A stretch of DNA of 64,000 nt, taken from assembly GCA_964652615.1 (NCBI GenBank), contig CAZZAT010000001.1, forward strand, positions 284,337 through 348,336. The letters run 5' to 3'. This document shows positions 3,585 to 63,136 of this stretch, one piece after another. The stretch comes from an uncultured Candidatus Saccharibacteria bacterium. Its GTDB lineage: Bacteria > Patescibacteriota > Minisyncoccia > Phycocordibacterales > Phycocordibacteraceae. The notes beneath the pieces were generated by a model. The model was not told the origin of the DNA and ran no database searches. It was given only the letters and a program-made list of their open reading frames with translations. Each line of letters starts with the position of its first letter. The first letter of the stretch is position 1. A program made the position numbers and the translations under genes.

Positions 3585-3622
3585 ATTCTCTCGCAATACT
3601 ATTGCTATAATCGGCAGTAGCT

Positions 3623-4970: not shown

Positions 4971-5324
4971 ATGATTGACACTACGGTATACAAAACAAGG
5001 CTTGAGGAAGAGAAAGCAAAGCTTGAAGGAGAACTTTCAAGTGTTGGTAGGCGCAACCCTTCAAACCCAGATGATTGGGAAGCAGTGCCGCAAGGCACAG
5101 GACAAGAACCTGACCCCAATGATGCTGCAGATCTCATCGAGGACTTTGAAGCAAACACTGCTATCTTGAAAGAGCTCGAGACTCGATACAATGAAGTGCT
5201 TGCGGCACTTACCCGCATTGAAAACGGTACATATGGTGTGTGCGGCGTATCGGGAGAAGCGATTGAGGAAGATCGCTTAAACGCAGACCCTGCAGCACGT
5301 ACCTGCAAAGCGCATATTAGCTAA
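4971..5324 (+). CDS. DksA/TraR-family protein with a degenerate C4 zinc finger
   Basis: Coiled-coil N-terminus; C-terminus ENGTYGVCGVSGEAIEEDRLNADPAARTCKAH resembles the DksA finger region with only two Cys. Start set at the internal ATG 4971 because the upstream ORF extends to 4948. Confidence 0.55.
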   Translation: MIDTTVYKTRLEEEKAKLEGELSSVGRRNPSNPDDWEAVPQGTGQEPDPNDAADLIEDFEANTAILKELETRYNEVLAALTRIENGTYGVCGVSGEAIEEDRLNADPAARTCKAHIS

Positions 5325-5335
5325 CCTCTATCCCT

Positions 5336-5968: not shown

Positions 5969-5971
5969 AAA

Positions 5972-6020
5972 GACAACGAAACCGCCCCTCTGCTTTTGCA
6001 GAGGGGCGTTGTCTTTTTGT
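5972..6020. terminator. Bidirectional rho-independent terminator
   Basis: gcccctctgc-tttt-gcagaggggc 10-bp stem inside an outer gacaacg/cgttgtc helix, followed by TTTTTGT; sits between convergent genes. Confidence 0.65.
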
Positions 6021-6021
6021 G

Positions 6022-6240
6022 CTAGCGAGCGTACACCAGAGGCTCTTCTTTGAGACGTCTGATGGGTAGCCCATTGACCATGTCAGAACGAACATCCGTG
6101 CGCGCTGAACGCATCGCGGCCTGAAAGCCGGCATCTACCAACTTCACATCGACCTCATAACCTTGTCCGCGCCAGTAGTCTTCAATGCGTTCCTTGAGAT
6201 CACTTGCGCCTTTTTTTGTACAAAAATCGGATGCAGACAT
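6022..6240 (-). CDS. Hypothetical small protein
   Basis: Start chosen at the ATG preceded by GGAGG plus 5 nt (reverse complement of 6241-6250); no recognisable domain. Confidence 0.35.
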   Translation of the reverse strand: MSASDFCTKKGASDLKERIEDYWRGQGYEVDVKLVDAGFQAAMRSARTDVRSDMVNGLPIRRLKEEPLVYAR

Positions 6241-6312
6241 ACCATCCTCCTTTCGTGCAGAACCGTTGCTGCACACGCGTACCATACGCCCGTTTACCAG
6301 AGAGTCAAGAAC

Positions 6313-7428
6313 TTAGTTTGCGAGCGGATTCTTTGCACCGCGTACTTCAAAGTGGAGGTGGTATCCGGTAGAGCGACCAGTGTTTCCAACGCCACCAAGC
6401 TTCTCGCCCTTTGAGAGAGACTCGCCTACAGAAACTGAAACTGAAGAAAGGTGCGCGTAGAGGGTCTGCGTACCATTATCGTGCGTGAGTACGACATAGT
6501 TTCCGTAACCACCATTCTCTCTTCCGTCACCTTTCGCTACGATGACTGTACCCGCAGCCGCAGCAAACACGGGCGTACCTTCTGCAATACCAGCAAGGTC
6601 AACACCATTCCAACCGTGAATACCTTGGGAGCGATACGAGCCAGGTACTGGATTACCGAAGTAGCCTGAAAGTTCTGGGGTCACCTTAGTCGTAGCTGGT
6701 GAGCCTGACGAAGCGATTTTTGCAGCAGGCTTCTTTGCAGGAATAAGGTTGCCGCCTGGAATGATGAGTTCTGTACCTGCGGCAAGCGACTCGCTTTCGC
6801 TAATACCGTTGAAGAGTGCTATTTCTTCAACATCAGCATCAAACAGCTTCGCAACATCAGAGAGAGTACCGCCGCTTTTAATGGTATAGCGTACGCCAGA
6901 AACAGGAAGGATGAGGAGCTCATCTCCTGGCTGAATAGTCTTTGCGTCCTTCACATCGTTTGCCCAGAGAATGGTGTTTACTGAGACTTCGAACATGTCT
7001 GCAATTTCTGAAAGGGAATCGCCCTCGCGCACCGTATAGAGGGTAATCTCACCGCCACCCCCGCCGCCCACCGAAGCTGAAGAAAGAGCGCCAACAGGAC
7101 CGCCAGAGGGAATGAGGGCAGAGCCGCCCGTTGTTGCGATAGCAAGCGTACCTTTAGAAGGGTTTGGGTCTGGGTGAGTTGCGGGGTCAAGATACTCAAC
7201 AGAAGCATCGTGAAGAGACGGAATCTCATCAGCGGCTCGTGTCGTTAAGAATGGCCATGAAAAAGCCTCAATGCGTATAGGAAAAGCCGCAAAGACGATT
7301 GCGACTGCGAAGCCTGCGATACCAACCGCGGCTATAGTTTTGTATGCATTTCCGCTTCGCTTAGGGGCGCCAGCTCGGAAAGGATGTTTTGAGGGCAAAA
7401 TAGGGGGTTCAGGGTGTTTCAAATCCAT
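6313..7428 (-). CDS. M23-family metallopeptidase with two LysM domains
   Basis: N-terminal TM; two LysM repeats (YTVREGDSLSEIA..., YTIKSGGTLSDVA...); C-terminal M23 motifs HxxxD...GNTGRSTGYHLHFEV. Confidence 0.85.
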   Translation of the reverse strand: MDLKHPEPPILPSKHPFRAGAPKRSGNAYKTIAAVGIAGFAVAIVFAAFPIRIEAFSWPFLTTRAADEIPSLHDASVEYLDPATHPDPNPSKGTLAIATTGGSALIPSGGPVGALSSASVGGGGGGEITLYTVREGDSLSEIADMFEVSVNTILWANDVKDAKTIQPGDELLILPVSGVRYTIKSGGTLSDVAKLFDADVEEIALFNGISESESLAAGTELIIPGGNLIPAKKPAAKIASSGSPATTKVTPELSGYFGNPVPGSYRSQGIHGWNGVDLAGIAEGTPVFAAAAGTVIVAKGDGRENGGYGNYVVLTHDNGTQTLYAHLSSVSVSVGESLSKGEKLGGVGNTGRSTGYHLHFEVRGAKNPLAN

Positions 7429-7613
7429 ACTTCCTAGTACAAAAATGGCTTACATAAGCCATTTCTTGAGTTCATCCGTATCAGCCGATTAGGGGAGTAT
7501 AGCGTTTTCGCTGAAACGGTCAATGAGGACACTATGAACGTGGGGATAGTCTAAAATAGGCTGTACATAAGCCATTTTATGAACTATCACCCTATCCAAG
7601 CTATAGTTAACCG

Positions 7614-10600
7614 ATGTCGTACCTCGATACCTTAAATACCGCACAAAAAGAGGCAGTCGAGACAACAGAAGGGCCGGTGATGGTGCTTGCTGGAGCTGGG
7701 AGCGGAAAAACAAAAGTCCTCACTACCCGCATCTACCACCTTATACGTTCCCATATTCTTCCGGAACGTATTCTGGCCATAACCTTTACCAATAAGGCTG
7801 CACGCGAGATGCGAGAGCGCCTCGGAAGCTTGCTTCAAACCGAGCTTGCGGTGTGGAAAAGGGAAGGGACGCCCTTTGTGGCAACTTTTCACGGACTGGG
7901 ACGCGAACTCCTTGAAGTGTACGGACGTCCCCTTGGTATCTCGCGCCATTTCACTATTTTTGATCGAGATGATTCTGAACGCGCAATAAAAGGGGCGCTC
8001 AAAGAGCTTGGTATCGATCCAAAAGAAGTAGCGCCTCGCTCTATTTTGGCGCGCATCAGCAAAGCAAAAGGAGAAGGACAGGACCGAGAGTCCTTTTCCG
8101 CAAAGCAAGCAAAAGAAAGTTTCAAGAGCCGCCTCACCGCTGATATTTGGCGCCTCTACGAAGCGGAACTCGCCAAAGAGAAAGCAGTTGATTTTGACGA
8201 CCTTATCGCGCTTCCCGTAAGACTTCTTGAAAACTATCCTGAGGTGCGCGCTGCTATTCAGGAACGCTTTCACTACCTGCATATCGACGAGTATCAAGAC
8301 ACGAGTGCCCTTCAGGGAAGACTCGTGCGCCTTATCGCTGGAGAACGACAAAATGTATTTGTCGTAGGCGATATCGATCAATGTCTTACACGTGGTACAC
8401 GCATTACCATGGCAGACGGATCCAAAAAAAATATCGAACACCTGCGAAAAGGAGATGAGGTTCTCTCAAACTTCGGAAGCGGCACTCTCAAAGCAGCTCG
8501 AGTGCAGCGAATTAAACAGAAGCGCCATACAAAACAACTGATACGCATTACCACACGCGGGAAGAAAACATTGACCAGTACGCCAGAACACATTCATTTT
8601 GCTGGATTTCGCCTTGGTCTCACACCACAACTTTATTTCACATATCTGATGTATAAGCAGGGAGTAGGGTGGCGCCTTGGCGTGTCACAAACATACACAA
8701 AAGGGCAACGCCTCCCTATGATTGGATTTCAGCAACGCTGCAACCATGAACACGGAGATGCTGTGTGGGTGGTTGGGGTATACACAACTCCGCAAGAAGC
8801 GCGCCTCAACGAATACACTCTTTCTCTTGCGTACCGTTTACCTACCCTCCCGTTTGTTGCTCGAAAAGGAACTACTGGAGGTTATGTACATGATCAGAAA
8901 ATAATCGATGGCGTTTTTGCAACATTCGACACAGAATCTGGTGCCCACATGCTTATGCGTGATAAAGGGCTTTCACGTGCATACCCGCATCATCGCGCGC
9001 AAGCAACAAGAAGCGACCGTAAAAACGCCGTGATTACCCTCTGCGGAAATAACCAAGGATCGGCTGCTCTACATCGTATTTCTATTGTCAGCAACGATGT
9101 GCTTACTGGAAAGAATCTTCAGGAGGCTGGGTTCTCTGTGCGACAAGCCAAAGCCGGATCGCAAAGTTGGAGATTTGAAACAGCGCACACCGACTACGGC
9201 GTACTACAGGAACGGTTGCTCCACCTTACGAAACTCATCCCTACGCTCCATGTCGTACAAAACGCTCGCTTAGGAGGACTGAAGAAAAATCCAAAAGATG
9301 GAAACTCTCTCCCATTCCTTCCTGCAGGATCGGTACTTCCCGGCATGGCAGTATTTGATGAAACAACAGGATACGACATCGTTGAAACCGTAGAGCACAT
9401 TACAGAAAAAAACGCTGTTGTATTTGATATTGATATTGAGAAAACACACAACTTCATTGCAAATGGCATCTTCACTCATAACTGCATCTATACTTGGCGA
9501 AGCGCAACTATTGAAAACCTGCTTGAGTTTGAAAACGAATATCAAAACGCCAAAAGTATCGTGCTTGAACACAACTACCGCTCTTCAAAAACTATTGTGG
9601 ATGCGGCTAATCAAGTCATCGAGAAGAACCGTAACCGTAAAGAAAAACGAAGCATAACCTCAAACGATGTCGGGGAACCCATACGCATACACATGGCGGG
9701 AACCGCTGACACTGAAGCGCGCTTTGTAGCAAAAGAAGCAGGGAAGTGTATAGAAGAAGGCACCTCTCCCGAGGATATAGCTGTCTTGTATCGTACAAAT
9801 TTTCAAAGCCGTGCACTCGAAGAAGCGTTTTTGCAGGCAGGCATTAGCTACCGACTTCTTGGCACCCAATTTTATGACCGCAAAGAAGTGAAGGACGTGC
9901 TTTCGTGGGTACGACTCTCACTTGATACCGAGCGCGAAGCTGACCGTATGCGCGCCGTACAGTTTCCTGCTCGCGGTATCGGAAAGGTCACGCTCGGCAA
10001 GCTTGCATCAGGTGCACGCGACGCTCTTAAACCAAGCGAGCGTGCAAAAGTAGAAGCGTTTGAGGAAACGCTTGCAAAACTTGGCGCGGCAGCGGACACA
10101 CTTCCTCCTTCCGAGTTCATTCGCCTTGTCATAGAAGAAAGCGGTATGCGTGCTACGTACGAAAAAGGCGGAGATGATGACGCGGAACGCCTTGAAAACG
10201 CAAAAGAGCTCGCAACGATTGCAAGCAGACACGACGGCACGCCAGGGAAGGAAGGTATCGCGGCATTTCTTGCTGACGCTGCGCTTGCAGGAGACCAAGA
10301 CGAGCTCGACAGGAAAAAGGAAAAGAAGGGAGTAACCCTCCTTACCATTCATGCTGCGAAAGGGCTTGAGTACAAGACGGTATTTATCACAGGGCTTGAA
10401 GAAGGACTCTTCCCGCATGAAGGTATGGGAGACGAGGAGCGTGATGAAGAAGAGGAACGACGGCTCTTCTATGTCGCACTTACGAGAGCCAAGGAGCGCT
10501 TGTATCTTACGCTTGCGCGAGTACGCCGCATATACGGCACCGACTATCTCCAAGAACCTTCTTCTTTTTTGCAGGACATAGATGCGTCCCTTGTCCTCTA

Positions 10601-15548: not shown

Positions 15549-18011
15549 ATGAAAAGCCTTCGTTTCGCACTATCCATGAGTCCGAAAGCTCTTATAGCGC
15601 ATAGTGTATTTTTCTCTTTGTTTGCATCTCTAGCATTCTTTGGCTTTAGTACACCCGCGTACGCAAGCTGCGGATTTGGAGATCTAGTTTGTGGCATTAT
15701 GAGCGGCGCTGGGAAGCTCTTCGCCACTTTTATCTTCGTGGTGGTACAGATTTTCGGTGTTCTTCTCGGCTGGATAAGTGCATTTTTTAACACTGCAGCC
15801 ATTGTTACCGTCTTCCAGTTTTCAAATTACTTCGGAAACTCCGAAGGACTCTTGCTTGCGTGGGGAATACTGCGCGACCTTGCAAATATCGTGATTCTCT
15901 TCGGCTTTGTCTTCATCGGCATCGGCACTATTTTGAATATTGGAAACTTCAGCGCAAAGAAAGCTCTCCCTTCTCTCCTTATTTTCGCGGTTCTTCTTAA
16001 CTTCAGCCTATTCGCCACCGAAGCAGTCATAGATGCATCAAATGCGATCGGATCATCATTCTTCGCGCAAGCAGGAGGAGTTGATTGCACCCTTAGCGCA
16101 AGCATCACGCAGTGTTCTGGACAGGGTATTGCAGGACATCTTTTGAGTGCTGTAGGTATCTCAAGCATCTTTGATCCTGACTCGTGGGGAGACGGCATTG
16201 GAGAAATAATGAACGCAGACGACGGTATTGCTGCGGCTGTACTCTATCTTGGTATTTTGATCCTCATTATCGTCATGTGTGCCATCATGTTTGCTGGTGC
16301 AATTATTCTCATTACCCGCGCGATTACACTAATGCTCCTCATGGTTACGTCTCCGCTTGGATTTGCGGGCATGGCCATTCCAGGACTCCAGAAACTAGGC
16401 AAGAAATGGTGGGACACGCTTCTTCAGAATGTTATCTTCGCACCTATCTTCGTCCTACTTATCCTTGTAGGACTTAAGGTCGCAGAGGGAATACGTACAG
16501 GACTTGTAGGGAACAGTTTTAGTATCACCGAAAAGCTTTCGGGGTCCGATCCTGTAGGTATAGGTACTGTCTTTGTTATGTTCGCACTTGTTATAGGTCT
16601 CTTTTGGGGAGCGCTTATGTTCGCAAAGCAGTCGGGCATCATTGGTGCAAGTGCAGTTGCAAGCGGTGCGATGAAATGGGCGGGGAATACAGCTGGTTCG
16701 TTCACCACTACACCTATTGGTATGGGTGCAAGAGCTCTGGAGAAGGGGTACGGAGGCGCAGCTCGAGCCGTACGTCGAGCAACACCATCTTTCGCACGCC
16801 CTGTACTTGCCGCACTCGGAGGTAACGCCATAGACAGTGGTATACGAGGCGCACTCGGTTCAGCACAAAAAGTCACTATACCTGGAACTGGTATGGATAC
16901 GTATGAGACGAGCCGTAAGCGCCGAGAAGACAGGTTCAAAGGAATGAACGAAGGAGACTCTCTTGACAAAAAGAAGGAACGTCTGAATAAAGCACTCGAG
17001 AGCGGTAATAAAGACGATATAAAAGCGGCTGTATCAAGTATGAGTGTTTCCCAACTCAAAGAGGGGGGCTACTTAGACGATGACAAAAAATCTAAAACTA
17101 TTGCAACTGCACTCGGAGCTCCAAAATTCAAGGAACTCATGGAGGATACGACTATCTCTAGTGGCATTAAAGATCGCATGAAGAAGGAGCGGTACGACAC
17201 TCTTGAAACAGCGGCTGATGCTGCTGTCCGCGATGCTAGAGCTGGGAATTTCGATACTATCGAGAAGTTCATGAAGGACACTGACGTTATTGATTTGAAA
17301 GAAATGAAGCACCTTAAAGACTCCGGTCGTGGAGCAGAACTTGAACTTATGGCTGGAGCTATGTCATCAACCAAATTCAAACAGTTTAACGAGGATAAAG
17401 AGGTTGATAGCGTTACAAAGAAACGCTTCCGCGATGCTCGCTATGAAGGACCAAGAGGTTTGAAGAAACGAATACGGGACGCTGCTGATACTACTAGGTC
17501 TCCAGCTGAAGTTGCTGCGGCTATTGAAGACGTATCGAAGTGGTCTGCAGAAGAATTCGAAACCTCTGGAGCCCTCTCTGATCCGACCCTAAGGGAGCAG
17601 GTTGCCCGTGTGATCTCTGATGACCAATACAAAGCTCTGCAAGCATCAAGCTCCATTGGTACAAGCACAAAGACAACCCTTGAAGGGTTGCGGGAAGATC
17701 CAACTAAAGACGGATCTCGATTCCATGCTCGGCATATCGATCACACGTTTAATAAAATTATTACGCGTCCGAGTGAGCGCGCCAAACTCCCAGGCAATAT
17801 TCTGGCTTCGTTGCAGGTAAGAAGTCGCTTGAAGCCAGCTGACTTTGTAGCTGTACAAAAAGCAGGTCGACTTGAAGAAGGAGATCGGCAACTTCTGGCC
17901 ACACGAGTTCAGGCGCTTGTTCGTGTTAATGACCCTGTCATGCTTGCACAAATTGGAAGACTTAAGGGTCGTGAACTTGCTCGATTTAAGGATTTCTATA
18001 ATCTTCCATGA
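15549..18011 (+). CDS. TrbL/VirB6-like polytopic membrane protein with a long charged C-terminal domain
   Basis: About 8 TM helices in the first ~400 aa, then a ~400-aa K/E/D-rich soluble domain; positioned next to PrgI/VirB4 genes. Confidence 0.45.
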   Translation: MKSLRFALSMSPKALIAHSVFFSLFASLAFFGFSTPAYASCGFGDLVCGIMSGAGKLFATFIFVVVQIFGVLLGWISAFFNTAAIVTVFQFSNYFGNSEGLLLAWGILRDLANIVILFGFVFIGIGTILNIGNFSAKKALPSLLIFAVLLNFSLFATEAVIDASNAIGSSFFAQAGGVDCTLSASITQCSGQGIAGHLLSAVGISSIFDPDSWGDGIGEIMNADDGIAAAVLYLGILILIIVMCAIMFAGAIILITRAITLMLLMVTSPLGFAGMAIPGLQKLGKKWWDTLLQNVIFAPIFVLLILVGLKVAEGIRTGLVGNSFSITEKLSGSDPVGIGTVFVMFALVIGLFWGALMFAKQSGIIGASAVASGAMKWAGNTAGSFTTTPIGMGARALEKGYGGAARAVRRATPSFARPVLAALGGNAIDSGIRGALGSAQKVTIPGTGMDTYETSRKRREDRFKGMNEGDSLDKKKERLNKALESGNKDDIKAAVSSMSVSQLKEGGYLDDDKKSKTIATALGAPKFKELMEDTTISSGIKDRMKKERYDTLETAADAAVRDARAGNFDTIEKFMKDTDVIDLKEMKHLKDSGRGAELELMAGAMSSTKFKQFNEDKEVDSVTKKRFRDARYEGPRGLKKRIRDAADTTRSPAEVAAAIEDVSKWSAEEFETSGALSDPTLREQVARVISDDQYKALQASSSIGTSTKTTLEGLREDPTKDGSRFHARHIDHTFNKIITRPSERAKLPGNILASLQVRSRLKPADFVAVQKAGRLEEGDRQLLATRVQALVRVNDPVMLAQIGRLKGRELARFKDFYNLP

Positions 18012-18778
18012 TCTTTTCTGAACAGCAAATCGAAGATGCTTTGAATGCAGCCCCTCAAGCGATACGGGACGTGCTTGAGGATGGTACACTTGACACATCT
18101 GTAGCGAAATCCTGCCAAGAACAAGGTCTCCATGTCGACCAAATTGGCGCTGTCGCTTTACACTCGCAAAATATACTCATAGGACTGCTGAAACCTTCAG
18201 AGTTTATATTCGAACTTGAATCAAGTGGAATCCCTAAGCCTGTAGCAAATGCCATTCTTCAAGACTTAAACGAACAGGTATTTAAACCATTGAACGAGAA
18301 AATACGGGCTGAAAAGGAAAGTGGGGAAGAAACACCAGAAGAGCCTGTAGAACCTACCCGCACGCCAGAAAAACCTGCGCCACCTCCACCCCCACGTATC
18401 GAAATAGCCGTACAGGAACCACCTCCTGTTCCTGTTATAGCTCCTCAAGTTCAAGCTCCTGTTGCTACGCCTCCTGCACCCACGCCAACTCCTCCACCTG
18501 TAGCACCAATGCCTCCAGCACCTACACCTCCTCCAACCCCTGCACCAGAGCCGCCTGCACCTCCAGCAACTCCGCAAATGCGCACCATGGCGCATGATGT
18601 CGAAGCGCTCAAAGATGGAAAGATGCCTGAACCACAGCGTCCTGCCCCACCTACACCGCAAACTCCTGCACAAGCACCGGTCACACATGAAGCAGCGCAA
18701 GATATGCCAAGCCATCAAGAAGTAACTGAATCTTTGAAGCAGTACGGTGTTGACCCCTATCGAGAACCCGTAGAATAG
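18008..18778 (+). CDS. Proline-rich protein (PPAPTP repeats), T4SS-like operon
   Basis: Start overlaps the previous stop; central (P-x)n low-complexity region. Confidence 0.4.
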   Translation: MIFSEQQIEDALNAAPQAIRDVLEDGTLDTSVAKSCQEQGLHVDQIGAVALHSQNILIGLLKPSEFIFELESSGIPKPVANAILQDLNEQVFKPLNEKIRAEKESGEETPEEPVEPTRTPEKPAPPPPPRIEIAVQEPPPVPVIAPQVQAPVATPPAPTPTPPPVAPMPPAPTPPPTPAPEPPAPPATPQMRTMAHDVEALKDGKMPEPQRPAPPTPQTPAQAPVTHEAAQDMPSHQEVTESLKQYGVDPYREPVE

Positions 18779-26940: not shown

Positions 26941-28287
26941 ATGAACCGCTCTGATCCACACGAGCTTTGGGAGCACCTTCTTTCGCAGGTAGAACTTTCT
27001 ATTTCAAGCGCAAACTTCAATACCTGGTTTCGCGAGAGTCACATTGTAAAAATAGAGGAGGGAATCGTATATATAGGCGTTCCAAGCCAGTTTTTTAGAG
27101 ATTGGTACCAGAAAAAATTCCATCAACTTCTCCTTAAGATACTGCGTGCTGTTTCATATGAGTACCGGAATATCGAGTACGTCATCGTTAAAGATGCAAG
27201 AAAGCCTCGTACCGAAAAGAAAAGGGAGCAAAACAACCAAGAACTACCGCTCGATGAGTTTTACATTAATAAGAGCGACAATCTAAACCCTCGCTATACG
27301 TTCGAAACGTTTGTTATTGGTTCCTTTAACGATCTTGCGGTAAAAGCCGCTGAAGCTGCCATCAGGCGGCCTGGTATTACCTATAACCCGCTCTTTATTT
27401 ATGGAGAAACTGGCCGTGGTAAGACGCACCTTATTCAAGCTATAGGCAATCAGTACAAGAAACTCTACCCCGCACGCAAAGTCTATTACTTAACGTCTGA
27501 AAAGTTTGCTGTTGAATACACCGATGCGATGCAGCAGGGAACAGGGAATCGCTTTAAGGAAAAGTACCGTCAGTACGATCTCCTTATCATTGATGATGTG
27601 CAGTTCTTCTCAAAGAAAGATAAGACGCAAGAAGAACTCTTCCACCTCTTCAATGCGCTTCATGACAATAACCGTCAGATTATTTTCTCAAGCGACAGAC
27701 CACCACAAGCTATTCCTGATATAGCAGACAGGCTGCGCGGTCGGTTCCTTTCAGGTATGACAGTTGATATTTCTGAACCTGACGTTGAGTCGCGTGTAGC
27801 TATTGTTCGTAAAAAAGCAGCGCTTCATGGAGTGCTTCTTGGAGATGAGGTGGTTGAATATATCGCAACGAACGTTTCAGGTTCTATTAGAGAGCTTGAG
27901 GGGGTTATTAATAGTCTTGTCTGCCATGCGCAGGTAAAAGGCTCTGCTCCTGATATTGCTGAAGTGCGGCAGTCGCTTCGCTCATTCTCCAGACCTACAA
28001 AGACTGTTTCTGTAAAGAATGTAGTGTCTAAAGTTGCCGAGTTTTACGGTATCGATGAAGAGAGTATTTATGAAAAGACACGAAGAAGGGAGGTGGTACG
28101 ACCGCGCCAAGTCATTATGTATCTTCTTCGAGAAGACTTTTCTGTGTCCTATCCAACTATCGGTACCAAGCTCGGCGGACGCGATCACACTACCGTCATT
28201 CACTCGTGTGAGAAGGTGAAGCGGGAAGTGGTTGATGATGCAGAACTTGCAAAAGAAATACAGGATATTCGCGGGCTGTTAGTATAA
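26941..28287 (+). CDS. dnaA: Chromosomal replication initiator protein DnaA
   Basis: AAA+ motifs GETGRGKTHL, LLIIDDVQF; C-terminal DNA-binding helix ...YPTIGTKLGGRDHTTV. Confidence 0.95.
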   Translation: MNRSDPHELWEHLLSQVELSISSANFNTWFRESHIVKIEEGIVYIGVPSQFFRDWYQKKFHQLLLKILRAVSYEYRNIEYVIVKDARKPRTEKKREQNNQELPLDEFYINKSDNLNPRYTFETFVIGSFNDLAVKAAEAAIRRPGITYNPLFIYGETGRGKTHLIQAIGNQYKKLYPARKVYYLTSEKFAVEYTDAMQQGTGNRFKEKYRQYDLLIIDDVQFFSKKDKTQEELFHLFNALHDNNRQIIFSSDRPPQAIPDIADRLRGRFLSGMTVDISEPDVESRVAIVRKKAALHGVLLGDEVVEYIATNVSGSIRELEGVINSLVCHAQVKGSAPDIAEVRQSLRSFSRPTKTVSVKNVVSKVAEFYGIDEESIYEKTRRREVVRPRQVIMYLLREDFSVSYPTIGTKLGGRDHTTVIHSCEKVKREVVDDAELAKEIQDIRGLLV

Positions 28288-28499
28288 CTGTGGAAAACAT
28301 ATGAAAAACTTCCGTAGAGCGCTGGGGATACTAAAGAAGGAAGTGGTTATAACTCTGCGTTCTGTATTTTCTATCAACACAAGTGTTTTTACTTCGACTA
28401 TCTTTTCCCCACGTTATTACGCATACACCCTTCAAGAAAGTGAGTATCTAGGAGGTAAAACAAAGTTATCCACGTATTAACAGCATTAATAGTATTCAT
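28288..28499. promoter_or_regulatory. Candidate oriC: AT-rich dnaA-dnaN spacer with DnaA boxes
   Basis: TGTGGAAAA (28289-28297), TTATAACCAC-like, TTATCCACG (28467-28475), AT-rich stretch 28360-28500. Confidence 0.55.
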
Positions 28500-29597
28500 A
28501 TGATTATTTCAATAGATAAAAAAATACTAGGAGATGCAGTAAATACTGTTTCTAAGTTTTCTGAACGAAAAGTACTTTCTCTTCCTGCGCTTTCAGGAGT
28601 GGCACTTGAAGCAGGTGAAACTATTACGCTTCGGGCCACAAACCTTGAGACGGGGATAGAGCTACATATTGATGGTTCAGTGCGTTCAAAAGGCGGCGTG
28701 GCGCTCCCTGCGTCTATTTTCCGCGATATAACCGCATCCCTTTCAGGAAACGGATCGATAACACTTGAAACGTCTGGAGATACCCTTGCGCTCTCTACAG
28801 ATAAAGGGAAAAGCACGATTAAGACGCTTTCGTATGAGGATATGCCCACCCTCTCGGCTCCAGAAGAAGGAAAGACAACCTTCACCCTTTCAGGAGCAAC
28901 CCTACGCTCTCTTATACAGTCAGTAGCATCCTACGCGTCTCCTTCGACAGTACGTCCTGAACTTGCAAGTATCTTCCTATCAGCTGAAGGAGGTATGATA
29001 AAAGCGGTTGCAACTGATTCCTTCAGGCTTGCGGAGAAGAAAGTATCCGTGAATACAAAACTCTCTCCATTCTCCATGCTTATACCTGCAAAGAATGCAC
29101 TCGATATCATGCAGGTTATTCCAGATTCAGATATTGAAGTGAAAGCAGATGAACATCAATGCGTCTTCATATGGAACTCTGGGCGAGCTGTTACCAGACT
29201 TGTCTCTATGCAGTACCCAGATTACGCGCAGATTATTCCCAAAGCATTTTCTGCGGAAGCGACCGTCCTTAAAAAAGACTTTGAGACAGCTCTCAAAAGA
29301 GCCTCTGTATTTTCAGACTCTTTCCAGAAAGTGAAGCTTGGTCTTGATGCGAAAGGGAAGAAGGTAGCGTTTTCTGCCCGCAATACGGATATTGGAGAGT
29401 CGTCTGAAGATATAAGCGCATCAGCTTCTGGAGAGTCGCTTGAGCTTTCATTTAATCACCGCTATCTTGCAGCCCCCCTTCAAGGAATGACCAGTGAAAG
29501 TATTAGTCTTTCAGCTGCTGGTATAGGGCGTCCATTGGTAGTACGAGGACAAGGAGATCAGTCGTTTTTGTATCTGGTGATGCCAATGAATCAGTAG
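28500..29597 (+). CDS. dnaN: DNA polymerase III beta sliding clamp
   Basis: 365 aa immediately downstream of dnaA; three-domain clamp-like pattern. Confidence 0.9.
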   Translation: MIISIDKKILGDAVNTVSKFSERKVLSLPALSGVALEAGETITLRATNLETGIELHIDGSVRSKGGVALPASIFRDITASLSGNGSITLETSGDTLALSTDKGKSTIKTLSYEDMPTLSAPEEGKTTFTLSGATLRSLIQSVASYASPSTVRPELASIFLSAEGGMIKAVATDSFRLAEKKVSVNTKLSPFSMLIPAKNALDIMQVIPDSDIEVKADEHQCVFIWNSGRAVTRLVSMQYPDYAQIIPKAFSAEATVLKKDFETALKRASVFSDSFQKVKLGLDAKGKKVAFSARNTDIGESSEDISASASGESLELSFNHRYLAAPLQGMTSESISLSAAGIGRPLVVRGQGDQSFLYLVMPMNQ

Positions 29598-39679: not shown

Positions 39680-39708
39680 TTGACAGTATCTTTCTATTGT
39701 GATATATT
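39680..39708 (+). promoter_or_regulatory. Sigma-70-like promoter TTGACA-17-TATATT
   Basis: Read in the pilB/39744 intergenic region; drives the high-GC secreted-protein gene. Confidence 0.5.
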
Positions 39709-39743
39709 TAACTTACCTTTGACCGCCAACCCAGGAGGGAAGA

Positions 39744-40178
39744 ATGCGGATGAACATTGGGAGTTTCGGTATTGTGGCAGCGGCAGCCCTGCTTGGCATG
39801 CTCTCGTTCGCTCCGGCGGCCGAGGCGCAAGAACGGCGTCAGTTCCAGTATGGTGCTGAGCGTTGCTACGGCTCTCACGAGCGCTGCTCGGAGCGTCAAC
39901 GCAGTCGCGAAAGCGGCGGGACTCGCCTCACCGGCGACCAAGCGGTGGAGATTGAACATCTCCGGACGGAACAAGCGCGGCTTCATGCGCAAGCTGCTCG
40001 TGATAACGCTCGCGCCCGTGTCGCTACCACCATTCTCGGTGGTGTGGCGCAAGTCGCAATCGCGCGCGAGCGCAACCGCAACGCGCGGCGGTATCAACAA
40101 CCGCCGTCGTACTACCAGCCGCCGCCGCGTCGTCAGCCGCCGCGCCACCGCTGCAACCACGGTTGCCGTTACCACTAA
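39744..40178 (+). CDS. Secreted Arg/Gln/Tyr/Pro-rich small protein
   Basis: Signal peptide ...LSFAPAAEA; region is about 60% GC against about 50% genome-wide; C-terminus QQPPSYYQPPPRRQPPRHRCNHGCRYH. Confidence 0.45.
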   Translation: MRMNIGSFGIVAAAALLGMLSFAPAAEAQERRQFQYGAERCYGSHERCSERQRSRESGGTRLTGDQAVEIEHLRTEQARLHAQAARDNARARVATTILGGVAQVAIARERNRNARRYQQPPSYYQPPPRRQPPRHRCNHGCRYH

Positions 40179-40287
40179 AACCGAAACGAAGAGAGGGCTC
40201 CAGCTTACGCTGGGGCCCTTTTTATATCTTGCCAAAAACCATATTTCATTGCAGGATGCGTTTAGAACCTGAATGGAAGGAGACGAC

Positions 40288-40596
40288 ATGCTTAGGTTCC
40301 TTGTAGCGTTCATAGCGCTTATGTTCACTGGCCTTTTCGCTTCTCCTGCAGAAGCGCACGGACGAGACTGGCAACATCGCTATTGTGGCGAGCGGCACGT
40401 TTCGCGTGACCGCGGATGCGGCGACTGCGGCTACCATCGTCGCTATCGTAGGCCACCACCCCCAGCGTGGCACGGCGAATACCGCCGTTCCGTGCGCGAG
40501 TACGGCTACCACTATACTCGCAGTGGTTATACGGTATGGAGGCGGCACTACTACGGGTGCGAGCGTCATCACGTACGCCGCTACCGGCGGTGGTAG
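40288..40596 (+). CDS. Secreted His/Arg/Tyr/Cys-rich small protein
   Basis: Signal peptide MLRFLVAFIALMFTGLFASPAEA; mature ~80 aa with 6 Cys, many RRY/HRR repeats. Confidence 0.4.
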   Translation: MLRFLVAFIALMFTGLFASPAEAHGRDWQHRYCGERHVSRDRGCGDCGYHRRYRRPPPPAWHGEYRRSVREYGYHYTRSGYTVWRRHYYGCERHHVRRYRRW

Positions 40597-47615: not shown

Positions 47616-47623
47616 TATCAGGG

Positions 47624-47696
47624 TGCTTCCAGCAGGAATCGAACCTGCATTTTCTCCTTCGGAGGGAGATGTCCTATCCATTGAACGACAGAAGCG
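47624..47696 (-). tRNA. tRNA-Arg (anticodon CCG)
   Basis: Acceptor GCTTCTG/TGGAAGC, D-arm GTTCAATGGATAGGAC, anticodon stem-loop TCTCC-CTCCGAA-GGAGA, T-arm GCAGGTTCGATTCCTGC. Confidence 0.75.
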
Positions 47697-47760
47697 TTCA
47701 TCGCGTTATAGCATGCGGCGCCTTGCCAGTGTGCCTAAGGAACGCTACAGTCTGCGTACT

Positions 47761-47832
47761 GCTCTCGTCGTTCAATGGATAGGACGCTAGCTTGCGGAGC
47801 TGGTAATGTAGGTTCGATTCCTGCCGAGAGCA
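47761..47832 (+). tRNA. tRNA-Arg (anticodon GCG as read; may be ACG-like)
   Basis: Acceptor GCTCTCG/CGAGAGC, identical D-arm GTTCAATGGATAGGAC, anticodon loop TTGCGGA, T-arm GTAGGTTCGATTCCTGC. Confidence 0.7.
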
Positions 47833-47838
47833 CACGAT

Positions 47839-52020: not shown

Positions 52021-52092
52021 GCCCCCATAGCTCAATGGATAGAGCAGCGGACTTCTAAGCCGTTGATGTTGGTTCGATTCCAGCTGGGGGCA
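52021..52092 (+). tRNA. tRNA-Arg (anticodon UCU)
   Basis: Acceptor GCCCCCA/TGGGGGC, D-arm GCTCAATGGATAGAGC, anticodon loop CTTCTAA, T-arm GTTGGTTCGATTCCAGC. Confidence 0.8.
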
Positions 52093-52165
52093 CAGACTAG
52101 TGCTAATTCAAGAGACTAAGATGGGTTATTGGAAACCAATACCTTCACGAAGGTATACTTGAGAT

Positions 52166-52888
52166 ATGAAAGATAGCAACGCAGAAAAACCAAAACCTAA
52201 ACCAGAGGCCGATTATTCATTTGATCCAATTTCTGCGTCTGCTAATCAATGGAGGACATATTTACTCAACGTAAAGAACTTTGAAAAAGATTTTACTCGA
52301 GGTGAATATCCGTTCGAGACACCAGCAAGCACTATTCTTAACAAGGTTCGCGAAGCTGGGACCCCTCGGTCTGCTATTGAGACTGCCGTTCAAGTAGTTC
52401 TAGACAACTGGGAAGAGATTGTCGGACAGGAGGTGGCCTTATTCTCAAGAGAGATTGATCCGGTCGAATTTGTCGCATCTCTTGCAGATGAAGCATCAAT
52501 TGGTGTGGTCCAAAGACTCTGGACTGACGTACCAAGAGACTCGGAACTGACGCAAAAAGGATTACGTCAGGCCCTCAAAGGACTTGGCGTAAATGTGCCT
52601 GTAGATCAAAAAGGCTTAGAAAAGCTATATACCGAACAGTTCGATACATATAGTTTTACCGCACTAGAGGTAATGCTTAAACGTGGCGAAGTAAATCGTG
52701 CGGCCGCGCTATTTGAAGAACATGTAGGCCAGTATCCAAAAGGGAACGACCCAGTAATGCTTGATTGTTTAGTATCGTTAGGTCTTCCAGCAGAATCTGC
52801 TAAGAAGTGGCTTGATCAGAGCGCTAATACGGGAACAGGATACGAACCTTGGTATAACCAAGCGTTAGAACGATGGGGCTATAAGTAA
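52166..52888 (+). CDS. Hypothetical protein (low-GC islet)
   Basis: 240 aa; A/T-rich codon usage distinct from neighbouring genes. Confidence 0.45.
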   Translation: MKDSNAEKPKPKPEADYSFDPISASANQWRTYLLNVKNFEKDFTRGEYPFETPASTILNKVREAGTPRSAIETAVQVVLDNWEEIVGQEVALFSREIDPVEFVASLADEASIGVVQRLWTDVPRDSELTQKGLRQALKGLGVNVPVDQKGLEKLYTEQFDTYSFTALEVMLKRGEVNRAAALFEEHVGQYPKGNDPVMLDCLVSLGLPAESAKKWLDQSANTGTGYEPWYNQALERWGYK

Positions 52889-52943
52889 GAATAATAACTA
52901 GACCAAGACGCCTCATTCCAATCTCTGAATCCGTCAAAAATCT

Positions 52944-54257
52944 TTGAATTATCTAACTCTACCTAGTCCGAGACTGGGGTGGGCACTTGAAATCACGGGC
53001 GAGTGTTATAGTCAGGACATGCCTCTAGAACGGACTCCTAAGCAGCAAAAAAAGGAATTCCCCCCAAAGCTCTCAAAGAAAGATACACAAGAATTAGTTC
53101 TCGCGCTTATGCGTAGAGGAGAGGGTAAGAATAAGATGAACTTAATGCAGCGTGCAGAAGAAGCATATAAGGAAGCTCGCGCAGATGTTCGTGCCGCGTC
53201 AAAACTTTCAAGAGAGCAGAAGAAAATGCTTGTTGCTCGGGCTGAATATCTAAACAAAGTGCTTAAGACCCTTGAAGAGCTCGCAGAGGGGAAGGTGCCA
53301 AGAACAATGAAAGCTCTCGATTATCTGGGTGAGGGCATCTTTGGCAGTGCGCACCGGAGGTCAGAGCGCTTTTATGACGGACCGATTGTTACAAAAGAAG
53401 GAATCGAAAAAATGATGTCCGTTCTCGAACGGGCAATTTATGGCGCTACGTTTATTGATGCACGTAAAAATCAGCACGCTATTTTTCACGAAGAAGTTGG
53501 TGAGGACGTAGAAACAGAAGAAACAGAAGAAACAGGAGAAGCAGAGAAGGTGGAAGAGCATGCTCCTGAAGAGCCCATAATCGAACCAGCTGCACCTCTT
53601 GAAGGGGAAGAGGAGCCTATTGCAGACGAAGAGGTTGAAGAAGAGCAAATTTCTGAAGAAGACGAAGAATTAGACGAGGAAGCTCTTTTAGAGAGGAAGG
53701 CTCGTCTTATGGAAATAGGAGAAGAATCTGAGGAGATCGCTAATATTCTTAGTAATCCGGACACAACCCTTTCACCTGAACAGGCGAAAGAATTAGTTGA
53801 TGATGTATGTGAAAGATATCTTGCTGAATATGAAGATTATCCAGAACGTGCCGAGGCGGAACAAAAAATAAGAATGTACAAAGAAATTGTGTCTGCAAAA
53901 TATAGAGAAGCACTAGAGGCACGTGCAATACGGTACGGGGAAGCACTCGAAGCGCGTATGATGCGGTATGGCAATGCTACTGGATTTGATGAGATCCAAA
54001 AGGAAGATAAAAAGAGGGGCGCCAGGAAAATAAGCTTTTGGGGAGCGGCACTTGCAGCGCTTGCGGCAGCAGGAGCATACATGGGTATGAAGCAATCTGA
54101 AGGTACAGTTATAGAAGATGCGGTTAAGGGAGAGAAGTTCACAGTTAGCGCAACCCTTGATGAAGTCCTTCCTCCCGAGGGTGAGGCATATATTCCTGAT
54201 GAACTATCAAAACCAGATGAGGGCCGTCCTGGCTTTGAGCCGCCGAACGCCCCTTAG
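52944..54257 (+). CDS. Hypothetical protein with extended acidic (E-rich) region and C-terminal TM (low-GC islet)
   Basis: EEVGEDVETEETEETGEAEK...EEVEEEQISEEDEELDEE; one TM near the C-terminus (ISFWGAALAALAAAGAYMG). Confidence 0.45.
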   Translation: MNYLTLPSPRLGWALEITGECYSQDMPLERTPKQQKKEFPPKLSKKDTQELVLALMRRGEGKNKMNLMQRAEEAYKEARADVRAASKLSREQKKMLVARAEYLNKVLKTLEELAEGKVPRTMKALDYLGEGIFGSAHRRSERFYDGPIVTKEGIEKMMSVLERAIYGATFIDARKNQHAIFHEEVGEDVETEETEETGEAEKVEEHAPEEPIIEPAAPLEGEEEPIADEEVEEEQISEEDEELDEEALLERKARLMEIGEESEEIANILSNPDTTLSPEQAKELVDDVCERYLAEYEDYPERAEAEQKIRMYKEIVSAKYREALEARAIRYGEALEARMMRYGNATGFDEIQKEDKKRGARKISFWGAALAALAAAGAYMGMKQSEGTVIEDAVKGEKFTVSATLDEVLPPEGEAYIPDELSKPDEGRPGFEPPNAP

Positions 54258-54265
54258 AACTTTAG

Positions 54266-54338
54266 TGCGCGGTGAGGGACTTGAACCCCCGACCTTCTCG
54301 GTGTAAACGAGTTGCTCTACCAACTGAGCTAACCGCGC
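54266..54338 (-). tRNA. tRNA-Val (anticodon UAC)
   Basis: Acceptor GCGCGGT/ACCGCGC, D-arm GCTCAGTTGGTAGAGC, anticodon loop TTTACAC, T-arm GGGGGTTCAAGTCCCTC. Confidence 0.75.
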
Positions 54339-56031: not shown

Positions 56032-56739
56032 ATGTGGCTTCCGTACCATTTGGGTATGGGAAAGATAGTGCAAAAGCCTAGTAGAGGGGACGTAGAGTGG
56101 TCACCTGATTTTTCCTATGCAATTGGTCTGTTAGCTAGTGATGGATGCGTTTCATCCGATGGACGCCATCTCACACTTGTTTCAAAGGATAGAGAACAGC
56201 TTGAAAATCTCGTCAGATGCTTGCGTTTACACGCGGCAATAAAATCAGACAGGATTCAATGGAGTGATGCGCGTCTGCATAAATTCCTCTGCTCCATCGG
56301 GATATCTCCTCGAAAATCATTAACACTCGGCGCGATAGACATACCTCCCAAATACTTCTTCAACTTTCTTCGCGGTTTATTTGATGGAGATGGAAGCTTT
56401 TACAGCTATTTCGATAAACGATGGCGCTCAAGCTTTATGTTCTATCTCAGTTTTACCTCCGCTAGTCCTGCACACATAGAATGGATACGGACTACGCTTG
56501 AATATAGATTGTGCGTTAAGGGTCATATCTCTAGAGTACCTCCCAGGCATGGAAAGAAAGGATGCGAAACTTTACGATATGCGAAAAGGGAAGCGGTGAA
56601 AATAATGCGTTGTATGTATGCTGGCCAAGGACCCTCATTGTCGCGGAAGCGCTTGAAAATAGAAGAAGCACTGCGTATAGTGGGCGAGTCCCTTAGAGAT
56701 AATGCCCAGGTGTTGAAATTGGTAGACATCATACCTTGA
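56032..56739 (+). CDS. LAGLIDADG-family homing endonuclease (two-motif, free-standing)
   Basis: Motif 1 AIGLLASDGCVS, motif 2 LRGLFDGDGSF; 3' end overlaps tRNA-Leu by 36 nt. Confidence 0.75.
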   Translation: MWLPYHLGMGKIVQKPSRGDVEWSPDFSYAIGLLASDGCVSSDGRHLTLVSKDREQLENLVRCLRLHAAIKSDRIQWSDARLHKFLCSIGISPRKSLTLGAIDIPPKYFFNFLRGLFDGDGSFYSYFDKRWRSSFMFYLSFTSASPAHIEWIRTTLEYRLCVKGHISRVPPRHGKKGCETLRYAKREAVKIMRCMYAGQGPSLSRKRLKIEEALRIVGESLRDNAQVLKLVDIIP

Positions 56740-56788
56740 GGTGGTATGGCCGAAAGGCGTGGAGGTTCGAGTCCTCTCCTGGGCACCA
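56704..56788 (+). tRNA. tRNA-Leu (anticodon GAG)
   Basis: Acceptor GCCCAGG/CCTGGGC, D-loop AAATTGGTAGA, anticodon stem-loop ATACC-TTGAGGT-GGTAT, long variable arm, T-arm GGAGGTTCGAGTCCTCT, CCA encoded. Confidence 0.8.
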
Positions 56789-62644: not shown

Positions 62645-62664
62645 GATAGATTCACAAGACGCAT

Positions 62665-63084
62665 ATGCCAAAAGTAGTAAAAAAGATTAAGCTCCAAATC
62701 CCTGCAGGGAAGGCAACACCAGCCCCTCCTGTAGGTACCGTACTCGGTCCTGCCGGCGTTAATATCGGCGACTTCGTCAACAAGTTTAACGAAGCTACTC
62801 GCGACAAGATGGGGGACATCATTCCAGTTGATCTCTCCGTGTATGAGGACCGCACGTTCTCATTCGTCTTGAAGACCCCGCCTGCCTCTCGTCTCATTTT
62901 GAAGATTCTCGGCATTGAGAAGGGTGCGCAGAAGCCAGGGCCAAAGAAGGTTGCAAGCCTCACCAAGGCACAGGTGCGCGCTATTAGCGAACAGAAGGCA
63001 CCAGACCTGAATGCCGCTTCTCCTGAAGCTGCAGACCGCATCATCGAAGGTACTGCACGTTCGATGGGTATTGATGTGAAATAA
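62665..63084 (+). CDS. rplK: 50S ribosomal protein L11
   Basis: [34 protein letters not shown]... Confidence 0.95.
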
Positions 63085-63100
63085 GGAGAGAAACAGAAGA

Positions 63101-63136
63101 AAGGCCGGAGCAAGAATGCTCCGGCCTTTCTTCTTA
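63101..63136. terminator. Bidirectional rho-independent terminator
   Basis: aggccggagc-aagaat-gctccggcct TTCTTCTT; between the rplK end and the convergent ATPase gene. Confidence 0.65.

Follow-up and report, generated by a model that had tools for sequence, protein, structure and literature searches.

A slot of 2.2 kb between two tRNA genes, holding two open reading frames that lack annotation, poses a simple question: are the two genes a site-specifically integrated element or its remnant – as an earlier note on this DNA proposed – or do they have separate histories? The host chromosome is that of a member of the Parcubacteria (Paceibacterota); reads of the source sample SRR15237804 give an identical contig. 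The window referred to below is the whole stretch of 64 kb that was analysed, the islet is the segment between the two tRNA genes, and L008 is the closest relative. The features concerned are these.

52021-52093, + strand: tRNA-Arg(TCT), the left boundary (ARAGORN; Rfam tRNA, 67.5 bits)
52094-52165, + strand: 72-nt spacer with a promoter-like site, GC 0.375
52166-52888, + strand: ORF1, 240 aa, acidic, pI 4.8
52889-53018, + strand: ORF1-ORF2 spacer of 130 nt, the last ~17 nt conserved with L008
53019-54257, + strand: ORF2, 412 aa from ATG
53019-53498, + strand: conserved helical N-domain of ORF2, 64% identical to L008
about 53484-53723, + strand: poly-acidic linker of ORF2, 46% Asp+Glu, residues 156-235
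53907-53971, + strand: 33-nt tandem duplication within the coiled-coil-like repeats of ORF2 (repeat search)
54030-54086, + strand: transmembrane helix of ORF2, residues 338-356, ISFWGAALAALAAAGAYMG
54265-54338, - strand: tRNA-Val(TAC), the right boundary (ARAGORN; Rfam, 69.4 bits)

ARAGORN and Rfam agree on both tRNA genes and on their convergent orientation, and the flanks are thus those that the earlier note had read as tRNA-Arg(UCU) and tRNA-Val(UAC). The first is the final gene of a conserved block, pilM-pilN-pilO-p103-tRNA-Arg, and follows PilMNO/p103 at the same position in every syntenic locus; homology between the window and L008 ends 2 nt past its 3' end, and the ORF1 segment begins immediately after that end at 52093. 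The 3' end of tRNA-Val points toward the islet and lies 7 nt beyond the stop codon of ORF2. ORF1 and ORF2 are the only credible open reading frames in between.

Part of the case for foreign origin was compositional. The estimate made by eye, about 44% GC, was close to the mark: the interval 52094-54264 has a GC of 0.449 (44.9%) compared to 0.499 (49.9%) for the window, and falls at the 2.5th percentile of equal-size windows. The A/T-ending codons that had been remarked upon are evident in the GC3 of both genes (0.349 for ORF1 and 0.358 for ORF2 vs. a gene mean of 0.472, sd 0.072; z about -1.7), but not in synonymous codon usage, which is unremarkable: ORF1 has a z of -1.4 and is not atypical, while ORF2 does not rank among the 12 genes, out of 48, that deviate most. 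Nowhere in the window is GC lower than at dnaA/dnaN (26941-29597, GC 0.44-0.45). The compositional dip of the islet is real but not exceptional: with dnaA and dnaN just as poor in GC, and with ordinary codon usage, the low GC is not diagnostic of foreign DNA and is a weak argument for foreign origin.

The order PilM-N-O-p103-tRNA-Arg(tct)-[tRNA-Leu(cag)]-X-tRNA-Val(tac)-[AcP]-RluA-L19, in which X stands for the slot, is kept in 18 syntenic Parcubacteria genomes with PilM identities of 53-86%, the closest comparison genome being at 86%. In six of the 18 (L015, L016, L017, L020, L023 and L028) X is empty, measuring 38-161 bp and containing just a terminator hairpin with or without tRNA-Leu; the other 12 carry about ten unrelated gene sets of 0.65-5.8 kb. 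One of these is a true integrated element: the slot of L035 holds 5.4 kb with a 598-aa large serine recombinase adjoining tRNA-Val and, at the far side of the element, 19 nt that repeat the 3' end of tRNA-Val exactly (z 7.2; 0/500 shuffles), which proves this end to be an attachment site in L035. In L008 a 4.8 kb set comprising a 441-aa serine recombinase, ParE and UDG sits exactly at the position of ORF1. The recombinase gene with Resolvase, Recombinase and Zn_ribbon_recom domains is present in both L035 and L008, and not in the window. L029 and L030, which are about 91% identical, differ by a 1.5 kb insert in L029 immediately 3' of tRNA-Arg, and toxin-antitoxin genes occupy the slot in L008 and L021. 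For this family the space between tRNA-Arg and tRNA-Val is a true hot spot, where genes are inserted and turned over. At about 70% nucleotide identity the alignment of non-coding DNA is lost, and the exact junctions with it.

Comparison of this interval among relatives, which the earlier note had recommended, separates the two genes. Within the islet ORF1 alone is peculiar to this genome: it is missing from the slot in all 17 other syntenic genomes, the closest included. ORF2, on the other hand, has an ortholog in L008, at the same position by tRNA-Val and with the same low GC (0.434 vs. 0.493 for the L008 locus); the N-domains are 64% identical (E 2e-58), whereas the remainder is unalignable. 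The earlier note had named, as evidence against its own reading, relatives carrying the same genes in the same place with similar composition, together with a lack of any att-like repeat: half of this is observed, in the form of ORF2 in L008. A further candidate, in L033, agrees in place, strand and size, and shares a collinear motif and the C-terminal octapeptide; aligned against shuffles it gives a z of 4.8 with the L008 copy and of 0.4 with ORF2 of the window, and is a probable distant ortholog. Large charged ORFs in the slots of L012, L013, L014 and L018 were also considered as homologs, and were unconvincing (pairwise z <=4.2).

The ortholog also bears on the extent of ORF2. The 437 aa originally reported correspond to a model that starts at a TTG (52944-54257), whereas public gene calls place the start at the ATG at 53019; the resulting 412 aa is the better model because homology to the L008 ortholog starts about 17 nt upstream of that ATG (the length of 240 aa given for the first protein stands). 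There, blastn homology with L008 resumes at 53002, and the conserved ~17 nt, with the sequence TATAGT (53007-53012) among them, make up the upstream signal of ORF2; aligned between window and L008, the conserved block reads AGTG[TG]TATAGTCA[GA]GACATGC. The poly-acidic segment and the C-terminal transmembrane segment that had been noticed in the protein are both borne out, the latter as a single hydrophobic helix followed by an acidic, Pro-rich tail of 56 aa that ends in GFEPPNAP. The bulk of the protein – helical N-domain, poly-acidic linker and coiled-coil repeats – would be cytoplasmic, with the one helix spanning the membrane and the short tail lying outside; the predicted structure of the N-domain has a pLDDT of just 64. 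The low GC of ORF2 follows from a Glu/Lys-rich sequence together with A/T-rich third positions, and the ortholog is alike. A search of a 5.8-billion-protein index with full-length ORF2, dominated by the acidic low-complexity segment, returned the protein itself and one homolog; a metagenome scan with the N-domain alignment gave no match, and also missed the L008 contig present in that collection.

ORF1 belongs to a small unnamed family and is all-alpha, with helical repeats of HEAT/ARM-like type: its antiparallel helix pairs are stacked to form a solenoid. The likeness to HEAT/ARM alpha-solenoid proteins is one of fold class only. None of 27 family members matches any Pfam family, those of HEAT, ARM or related repeats included, and a PDB sequence search returned nothing with E below 0.08. 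The family is tiny (25 clusters) and patchy in distribution. Homologs 55-71% identical to ORF1 occur in at least 9 other contexts, in none of which is a relative of ORF2 found beside them. DNA similarity among the homologs is limited to the coding sequence and a short promoter block: a promoter scan places a -10 box, TATACT, at 52154-52159, 6 nt before the ATG of ORF1; a TATAnT box stands at an equal distance upstream in five of six homologs, and the upstream block CTTCAC[GA]AAGGTATACT is common to the L061/L062 homolog.

The surroundings of these homologs are instructive. Three of ten family contexts lie directly 3' of a tRNA gene (Arg-tct, Gln-ctg, Gly-tcc), and in L059 a single homolog has tRNA-Gln on one side and, on the other, a 19/20-nt repeat of the 3' end of that tRNA (z 7.9; 0/500). 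The homolog in L011 is frameshifted, and 5 kb away lies a recombinase 56% identical to that of L008. A UPF0176 rhodanese belongs to a loose neighbourhood common to three homolog loci, and the GC of homologs follows that of the host. In the ORF1-bearing L005, the RrnaAD protein is 25% identical to that of the window and is possibly a paralog.

The earlier note had proposed looking for a direct repeat of the tRNA-Arg 3' end near tRNA-Val. None was found by exact, mismatch or gapped searches. An att-like repeat of either tRNA end is lacking from the window, whether the search asks for exact matches of 8 nt or more, allows <=3 mismatches over 23 nt across the whole window, or uses gapped local alignments compared to shuffles. 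The best gapped-alignment scores in the window have z values of -0.7 for tRNA-Arg and 0.7 for tRNA-Val (187/500 shuffles); the positive controls L035 and L059 gave 7.2 and 7.9 in the same test. The best match to the 3' part of tRNA-Val, at 52978-52991 in the ORF1-ORF2 spacer, is not significant, and Rfam detects no partial tRNA. The stretch at about 52979-52999 was considered as a degenerate tRNA-Arg 3' end, with a counterpart motif in L008; both were dismissed on local alignment against shuffles. Neither ORF1 nor ORF2 contains a recombinase domain, and three serine recombinases of relatives, compared to the 64 kb window by tblastn, gave no match and no fragment; that no integrase remains in the islet had been correctly seen.

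Wider searches with the two proteins were negative. Neither matches anything in PADLOC, Pfam, PHROGs or NCBIfam, no relatives of either were found in viral contigs, phage records or plasmid records, and a literature search yielded no paper on this site or on the proteins. What we infer of the functions of both comes from fold or architecture only.

The explanation we favour, and hold to be reasonably probable, is that of a slot of gene turnover between convergent tRNAs in which ORF2 is resident and ORF1 inserted – two histories side by side, with mobility genes absent. ORF2 would be a vertically inherited, fast-diverging single-pass membrane protein that has stood beside tRNA-Val since at least the ancestor common with L008. 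ORF1, to judge by its fold a small cytoplasmic alpha-solenoid and probably a binding scaffold rather than an enzyme, would have been inserted with its own promoter just past the tRNA-Arg 3' end and ahead of ORF2, in this lineage alone. Most likely it was carried in by an integrative element that targets tRNA genes, and as cargo has outlasted the recombinase and the att repeats, which were lost by deletion or decay. ORF1 is probably leftover cargo, and ORF2 a resident gene. For the copy in the window this element origin is argued by analogy, since the window has neither a tRNA-end repeat nor a recombinase or fragment of one; an old family gene, relocated, would also fit the codon usage of ORF1 and the host-tracking GC of its homologs.

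Could the whole 2.2 kb nevertheless have been gained as a unit at the tRNA-Arg 3' end? In favour are the position of the interval, with a tRNA 3' end on either side, the low GC3 of both genes, the vacant site of six relatives and the real elements that integrate there; yet ORF2 occurs without ORF1 in L008, homologs of ORF1 never neighbour ORF2, att repeat and integrase are both absent, and the GC of dnaA and dnaN is equally low. We therefore regard acquisition in one piece as very unlikely: of the original proposal, what survives is the slot as a hot spot of insertion and turnover, and ORF1 as a gene that 17 relatives lack there, but not the 2.2 kb as one unit. Scarcely better placed is the idea that ORF2 is itself old cargo, from an element integrated at the tRNA-Val 3' end as in L035, with ORF1 added later and with two tRNA-like stretches, one at 52978-52991 and one in the final codons of ORF2, as decayed att fragments. 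The best tRNA-Val 3' match of the islet does fall in the spacer just before homology to L008 resumes; the C-termini GFEPPNAP of ORF2 and GLEPPSAP of the L033 protein correspond to the peptide of a tRNA T-arm read antisense; L033 DNA matches its own tRNA-Val T-arm at 14/15 nt (3/500 shuffles); and six relatives have an empty site. However, such matches as the window has do not exceed chance (z 0.7, 187/500 shuffles; 10/14 nt), the Rfam search is negative for partial tRNAs, and a C-terminal fragment adjoining an intact tRNA misfits a single integration event, all of which makes this account quite improbable.

A different possibility is that both genes are old and vertically inherited, and that genomes differ through recurrent loss and local rearrangement, horizontal transfer and integrative elements having played no part in this window. 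Such a history agrees with codon usage in the normal range, with the match between GC of ORF1 homologs and that of each host, with the lack of any trace of mobility genes or att sites and with the clear inheritance of ORF2; the three homolog loci near a UPF0176 rhodanese even hint at an ancestral home elsewhere. Against it stand the absence of ORF1 from the slot in 17/17 other genomes (the closest among them), homologs in at least 9 different contexts, a significant tRNA 3' end repeat that encloses one homolog, three of ten homologs directly after a tRNA, and a family so small and patchy; we consider it unlikely. Finally, ORF1 and ORF2 might be a functional two-gene system, for example the toxin/immunity or phage-defence pair suggested by the earlier note. 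They are adjacent, on the same strand and in a variable region, and toxin-antitoxin genes occupy the same slot in L008 and L021, but the pairing is absent from every other locus, no defence or toxin model matches either protein, and the two genes have separate promoter-like sites and a 130-nt spacer between them, leaving a joint function barely credible.

Beyond the turnover slot with one resident and one inserted gene, a bolder version can be drawn, to which we attach little probability. Genes of the ORF1 family could be minimal single-gene cargo cassettes with their own promoter, moved in trans to the 3' ends of tRNAs (Arg-tct, Gln-ctg, Gly-tcc) in CPR bacteria; the tRNA-Arg/tRNA-Val pair could be a double attachment site reused by serine-recombinase elements, and ORF2 domesticated older cargo whose last codons come from a tRNA fragment.

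Integrase-less remnants flanked by att sites are cis-mobilizable or decayed islands. The L059 homolog of ORF1 resembles these in being a lone gene with a tRNA 3' end on one side and the repeat of that end on the other, without a recombinase; the window differs in that even the repeat is absent, and position and cargo gene remain. As in the tRNA-gene islands defined by Islander/TIGER (PMC4383910), the islet lies directly 3' of a tRNA gene. The full signature of such islands is seen in L035 (intact tRNA-Val, displaced 19-nt 3' fragment, recombinase), and likewise around the L059 homolog with its tRNA-Gln and displaced 19/20-nt fragment, whereas integrase and displaced tRNA fragment are both missing from the window, where one half of the interval (ORF2) is inherited. 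Absence from the same site in relatives, a further mark of these islands, holds for ORF1 (17/17) but not for ORF2: L008 has this gene, and L033 probably does too. In the Islander/TIGER account, tyrosine integrases are the usual catalysts of tRNA-gene islands; the recombinases found at this site in relatives are, by contrast, large serine recombinases. A parallel is also offered by the tycheposons of Prochlorococcus (bioRxiv 10.1101/2020.12.28.424599), where a small streamlined genome likewise carries flexible genes at few tRNAs through repeated integration and decay of small cargo elements, and where cargo at the same tRNA differs between strains; here, however, phylum and recombinases are others, and the slot is tiny (0-5.8 kb) and lies between two convergent tRNAs.

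The islet is an ordinary example of a known pattern and would not surprise a specialist. It serves as a calibration: a 5-point dip in GC beside a tRNA is in this genome no proof of foreign DNA, given that replication genes dip equally, and the inherited half (ORF2) and the inserted half (ORF1) are separable only by comparison with relatives. Two small protein families, the ORF1 solenoid and the ORF2 membrane protein, are delineated. In the Parcubacteria, whose mobile elements have been little described, a turnover hot spot is now well defined, with examples of the empty, the filled and the actively integrated state; it could help to map the attachment sites of serine-recombinase elements in CPR bacteria.

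The islet between tRNA-Arg(tct) and tRNA-Val(tac) is as the earlier note had described it: checks of tRNAs, reading frames and GC content agree with its two tRNAs, two ORFs, low GC, acidic segment and transmembrane helix. Its features are as follows.

Features of the islet
52021-52093, + strand, tRNA-Arg(tct) (ARAGORN and Rfam agree)
52166-52888, + strand, ORF1, 240 aa
52944-54257, + strand, ORF2, TTG-start model, 437 aa
53019-54257, + strand, ORF2, adopted model, ATG at 53019, 412 aa, as in public gene calls
54265-54338, - strand, tRNA-Val(tac) (ARAGORN and Rfam agree)

The shorter ORF2 model was adopted because similarity to the ortholog starts ~17 nt before the ATG at 53019. The protein carries a segment that is 46% Asp+Glu and a single hydrophobic helix close to the C-terminus. 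TATA-type boxes lie 6 nt upstream of both start codons (TATACT at 52154-52159 for ORF1; TATAGT at 53007-53012 for ORF2, kept in the closest relative, L008), neither with a clear Shine-Dalgarno sequence, and a TATAnT box is found at the same distance in five of six ORF1 homologs: these positions suggest that the transcripts would be leaderless or near-leaderless.

As the earlier note proposed, the interval between the two tRNAs was compared in relatives, here 17 further Parcubacteria/Paceibacterota genomes (PilM 53-86% identical to that of the window) obtained by context look-ups and two PilM-alignment scans. All share the backbone PilM-PilN-PilO-p103 (a conserved gene)-tRNA-Arg(tct)-[tRNA-Leu(cag)]-X-tRNA-Val(tac, opposite strand)-[acylphosphatase]-RluA-L19-[LAGLIDADG]-tRNA-Leu(gag)-tRNA-His, in which X is a variable slot, empty or filled. 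When neither empty nor occupied by tRNA-Leu(cag) alone, X spans 0.65-5.8 kb, with gene contents showing no detectable kinship to one another.

Contents of slot X in relatives (L numbers denote genomes or loci)
L015 (41 bp), L020 (48 bp), L023 (57 bp), L028 (38 bp): empty, only a hairpin followed by T runs
L016, L017: tRNA-Leu(cag) alone
L012, L013, L014, L018: large charged ORFs
L021: Vut_1 transporter, glutaredoxin-like ORF, extra tRNA-Arg(cct), RelE-like pair
L022: 156-aa ORF
L029/L030: 206-aa ORF

Three relatives are described separately. An integrated element of 5.4 kb occupies the tRNA-Val(tac) 3' end in L035 (12824-18339), marked by an exact 19-nt direct repeat of that end, GTGCGCGCTGAGGGACTTG, at 12824 and 18266 (z 7.2, scored against shuffled sequences); it encodes a 598-aa large serine recombinase (16480-18276) whose gene ends inside tRNA-Val, together with genes that could not be annotated (a 181-aa HTH-like ORF, a 351-aa membrane protein and a 221-aa coiled-coil protein). 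L008 has, exactly at the position of ORF1, a 4.8 kb gene set (5141-9983; same DNA in L009, L010 and L024). Besides a large serine recombinase (441 aa), the set encodes an antitoxin-like ORF (92 aa) with a ParE toxin, a UDG-family protein and five orphan ORFs; around it, an att repeat was not detected. Of the ~91% identical genomes L029 and L030, only the former carries a 1.5 kb insert (2632-4136, against 12592-12613 in L030), which takes exactly the place of the 22-nt spacer separating tRNA-Arg(tct) from tRNA-Leu(cag). The insert encodes a TrmB-like HTH regulator (262 aa) as well as a 193-aa ORF, and its junctions show no visible repeats. Because the slot is empty, filled with unrelated genes or carrying integrated elements across relatives, it is truly a hot spot, into which elements have integrated.

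In most relatives tRNA-Leu(cag) comes immediately after tRNA-Arg(tct). This gene is missing at the window locus and throughout the 64 kb window; it is also missing at the locus in L008, L015, L020, L022, L023, L028, L033 and L035.

The two islet genes differ in history. The alignment of the window with L008, at ~70% nucleotide identity, breaks off 2 nt beyond tRNA-Arg; it resumes 17 nt upstream of the ORF2 ATG, at 53002, and continues through the ORF2 N-domain, tRNA-Val, acylphosphatase, RluA and L19. The N-domain of the L008 homolog is 64% identical (E 2e-58), the remainder being unalignable. ORF2 is therefore an inherited, quickly diverging gene, and the window-specific part is confined to 52096-53001, that is, to ORF1. 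A 411-aa ORF of L033, which matches ORF2 in position and strand and has a TM helix near its end, is probably a distant ORF2 ortholog, judging from a collinear FG[ST]..DR..TK[EG]GI motif shared with the L008 homolog (z 4.8, versus only z 0.4 against window ORF2) and from its last eight residues (GLEPPSAP, versus GFEPPNAP in ORF2). ORF2 is a resident, fast-evolving membrane-protein gene.

The composition of the islet is not very unusual. GC of 52094-54264 is 0.449 versus 0.499 for the window (2.5th percentile among equal-sized windows), and GC3 is 0.349 for ORF1 and 0.358 for ORF2 (mean 0.472, sd 0.072, 48 genes). The window minimum (0.435-0.44, at 26.3-29.6 kb) falls on the core genes dnaA (26941-28287, GC 0.442) and dnaN, the DNA polymerase III beta clamp (28500-29597, GC 0.452). 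When the synonymous codon choice of each gene is tested against that of the remaining window, ORF1 scores z = -1.4, and ORF2 lies outside the 12 most atypical genes. Since the L008 ortholog likewise falls ~6 points short of the locus that holds it (0.434 versus 0.493), low GC is a property of ORF2 itself; GC of ORF1 homologs tracks their hosts (0.37 to 0.56).

YidC lies upstream of dnaA/dnaN, and the minimum of cumulative GC skew falls nearby (~24-26 kb), which makes this region the probable site of the replication origin. The most atypical synonymous codon usage (z about -3) belongs to ORFs 62652-63113 (-) and 39708-40328 (-), which may be of foreign origin or may be reading frames that were called wrongly.

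Ten distinct contexts of the ORF1 family were recovered, the window included, and an ORF2 relative is absent beside ORF1 in all the others. DNA similarity is confined to the CDS, plus a short upstream block common to L061. In three contexts the gene comes directly after the 3' end of a co-oriented tRNA, with a gap of 72 nt in the window (Arg-tct), 73 nt in L059 (Gln-ctg) and 136 nt in L061/L062 (Gly-tcc). At L059 (586-1523) a lone ORF1-family gene sits between tRNA-Gln(ctg) and a 19/20-nt direct repeat of the tRNA 3' end, CG[A/C]ATCCAAGTCCGGCAGCC, at 1504-1523, 44 nt past the stop codon (z 7.9, 0/500 shuffles), enclosed exactly as expected for a tDNA island; with no recombinase within the interval, it resembles either a single-gene remnant of an island or a cassette that is mobilised in trans. 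The L011 homolog carries a frameshift, and a recombinase with 56% identity to the L008 enzyme is encoded 5 kb away from it. From these contexts ORF1 acts as roaming cargo that favours tRNA 3' ends. In L002, L011 and L059, loci otherwise different, a UPF0176-type rhodanese gene is found 0.3-8 kb downstream of the homolog, a neighbourhood that may be the trace of an older home for the family.

Within the window itself, searches by exact words, by words with up to three mismatches and by gapped local alignment against shuffles gave no second copy of the tRNA-Arg or tRNA-Val 3' end, and thus not the att-like repeat of tRNA-Arg that the earlier note had proposed looking for. Nor was a recombinase found anywhere in the window, in keeping with the reported lack of an integrase in the islet; neither protein was found in phage, plasmid and viral-contig collections, and Rfam revealed no partial tRNA. 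G[LF]EPP is the peptide of any tRNA T-arm read antisense, and it is encoded by the final codons of ORF2 (54231-54257) and of the L033 ORF (14004-14030): the L033 DNA matches its own tRNA-Val T-arm at 14/15 nt (3/500 shuffles), the window ORF2 end at only 10/14. The best islet match to the 3' part of tRNA-Val (52978-52991) lies just before L008 homology resumes and scores at chance level. Both are weak leads and were not relied on.

Two further features of the window concern tRNA genes. A free-standing LAGLIDADG endonuclease gene (56032-56739, +; Pfam LAGLIDADG_3, E 5e-12; GC 0.446; codon usage third most atypical, z -2.2) lies between L19 and tRNA-Leu(gag) (56704-56788), which its last 36 nt overlap; L014, L015 and L020 have homologs of 48-52% identity at this position, which is empty in L008, L012, L013, L016 and others. 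At 47622-47833, tRNA-Arg(ccg) (-) and tRNA-Arg(gcg) (+) point away from each other; relatives have both on one strand (- in L013, L014, L018 and L021; + in L017), and one of the window pair has therefore been locally inverted.

The proposal that the islet is an integrated element or its remnant is supported for the insertion hot spot and for ORF1 as inserted; it fails for the islet as a single element, which is rejected, ORF2 being inherited (L008). The observation named beforehand as speaking against an element, the same genes with similar composition in relatives, was made for ORF2 (in L008, where GC is also low) and not for ORF1. ORF1 would be an accessory gene inserted 3' of tRNA-Arg in the window lineage and, by analogy with L059, L035 and L008, is probably left over from an integrative element. 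The main rival, plain vertical inheritance with relocation and loss, we regard as rather unlikely; the missing repeat and recombinase in the window speak for it, the tRNA-adjacent contexts of the ORF1 family against it. The combined account, a resident ORF2 joined by an ORF1 inserted after tRNA-Arg in this lineage as a probable integrative-element remnant, is the one we favour, with some reserve. The tRNA-anchored flexible slot is already known as a pattern, both from tDNA islands (PMC4383910) and from the tRNA-anchored islands of Prochlorococcus (bioRxiv 10.1101/2020.12.28.424599); the instance itself is new.
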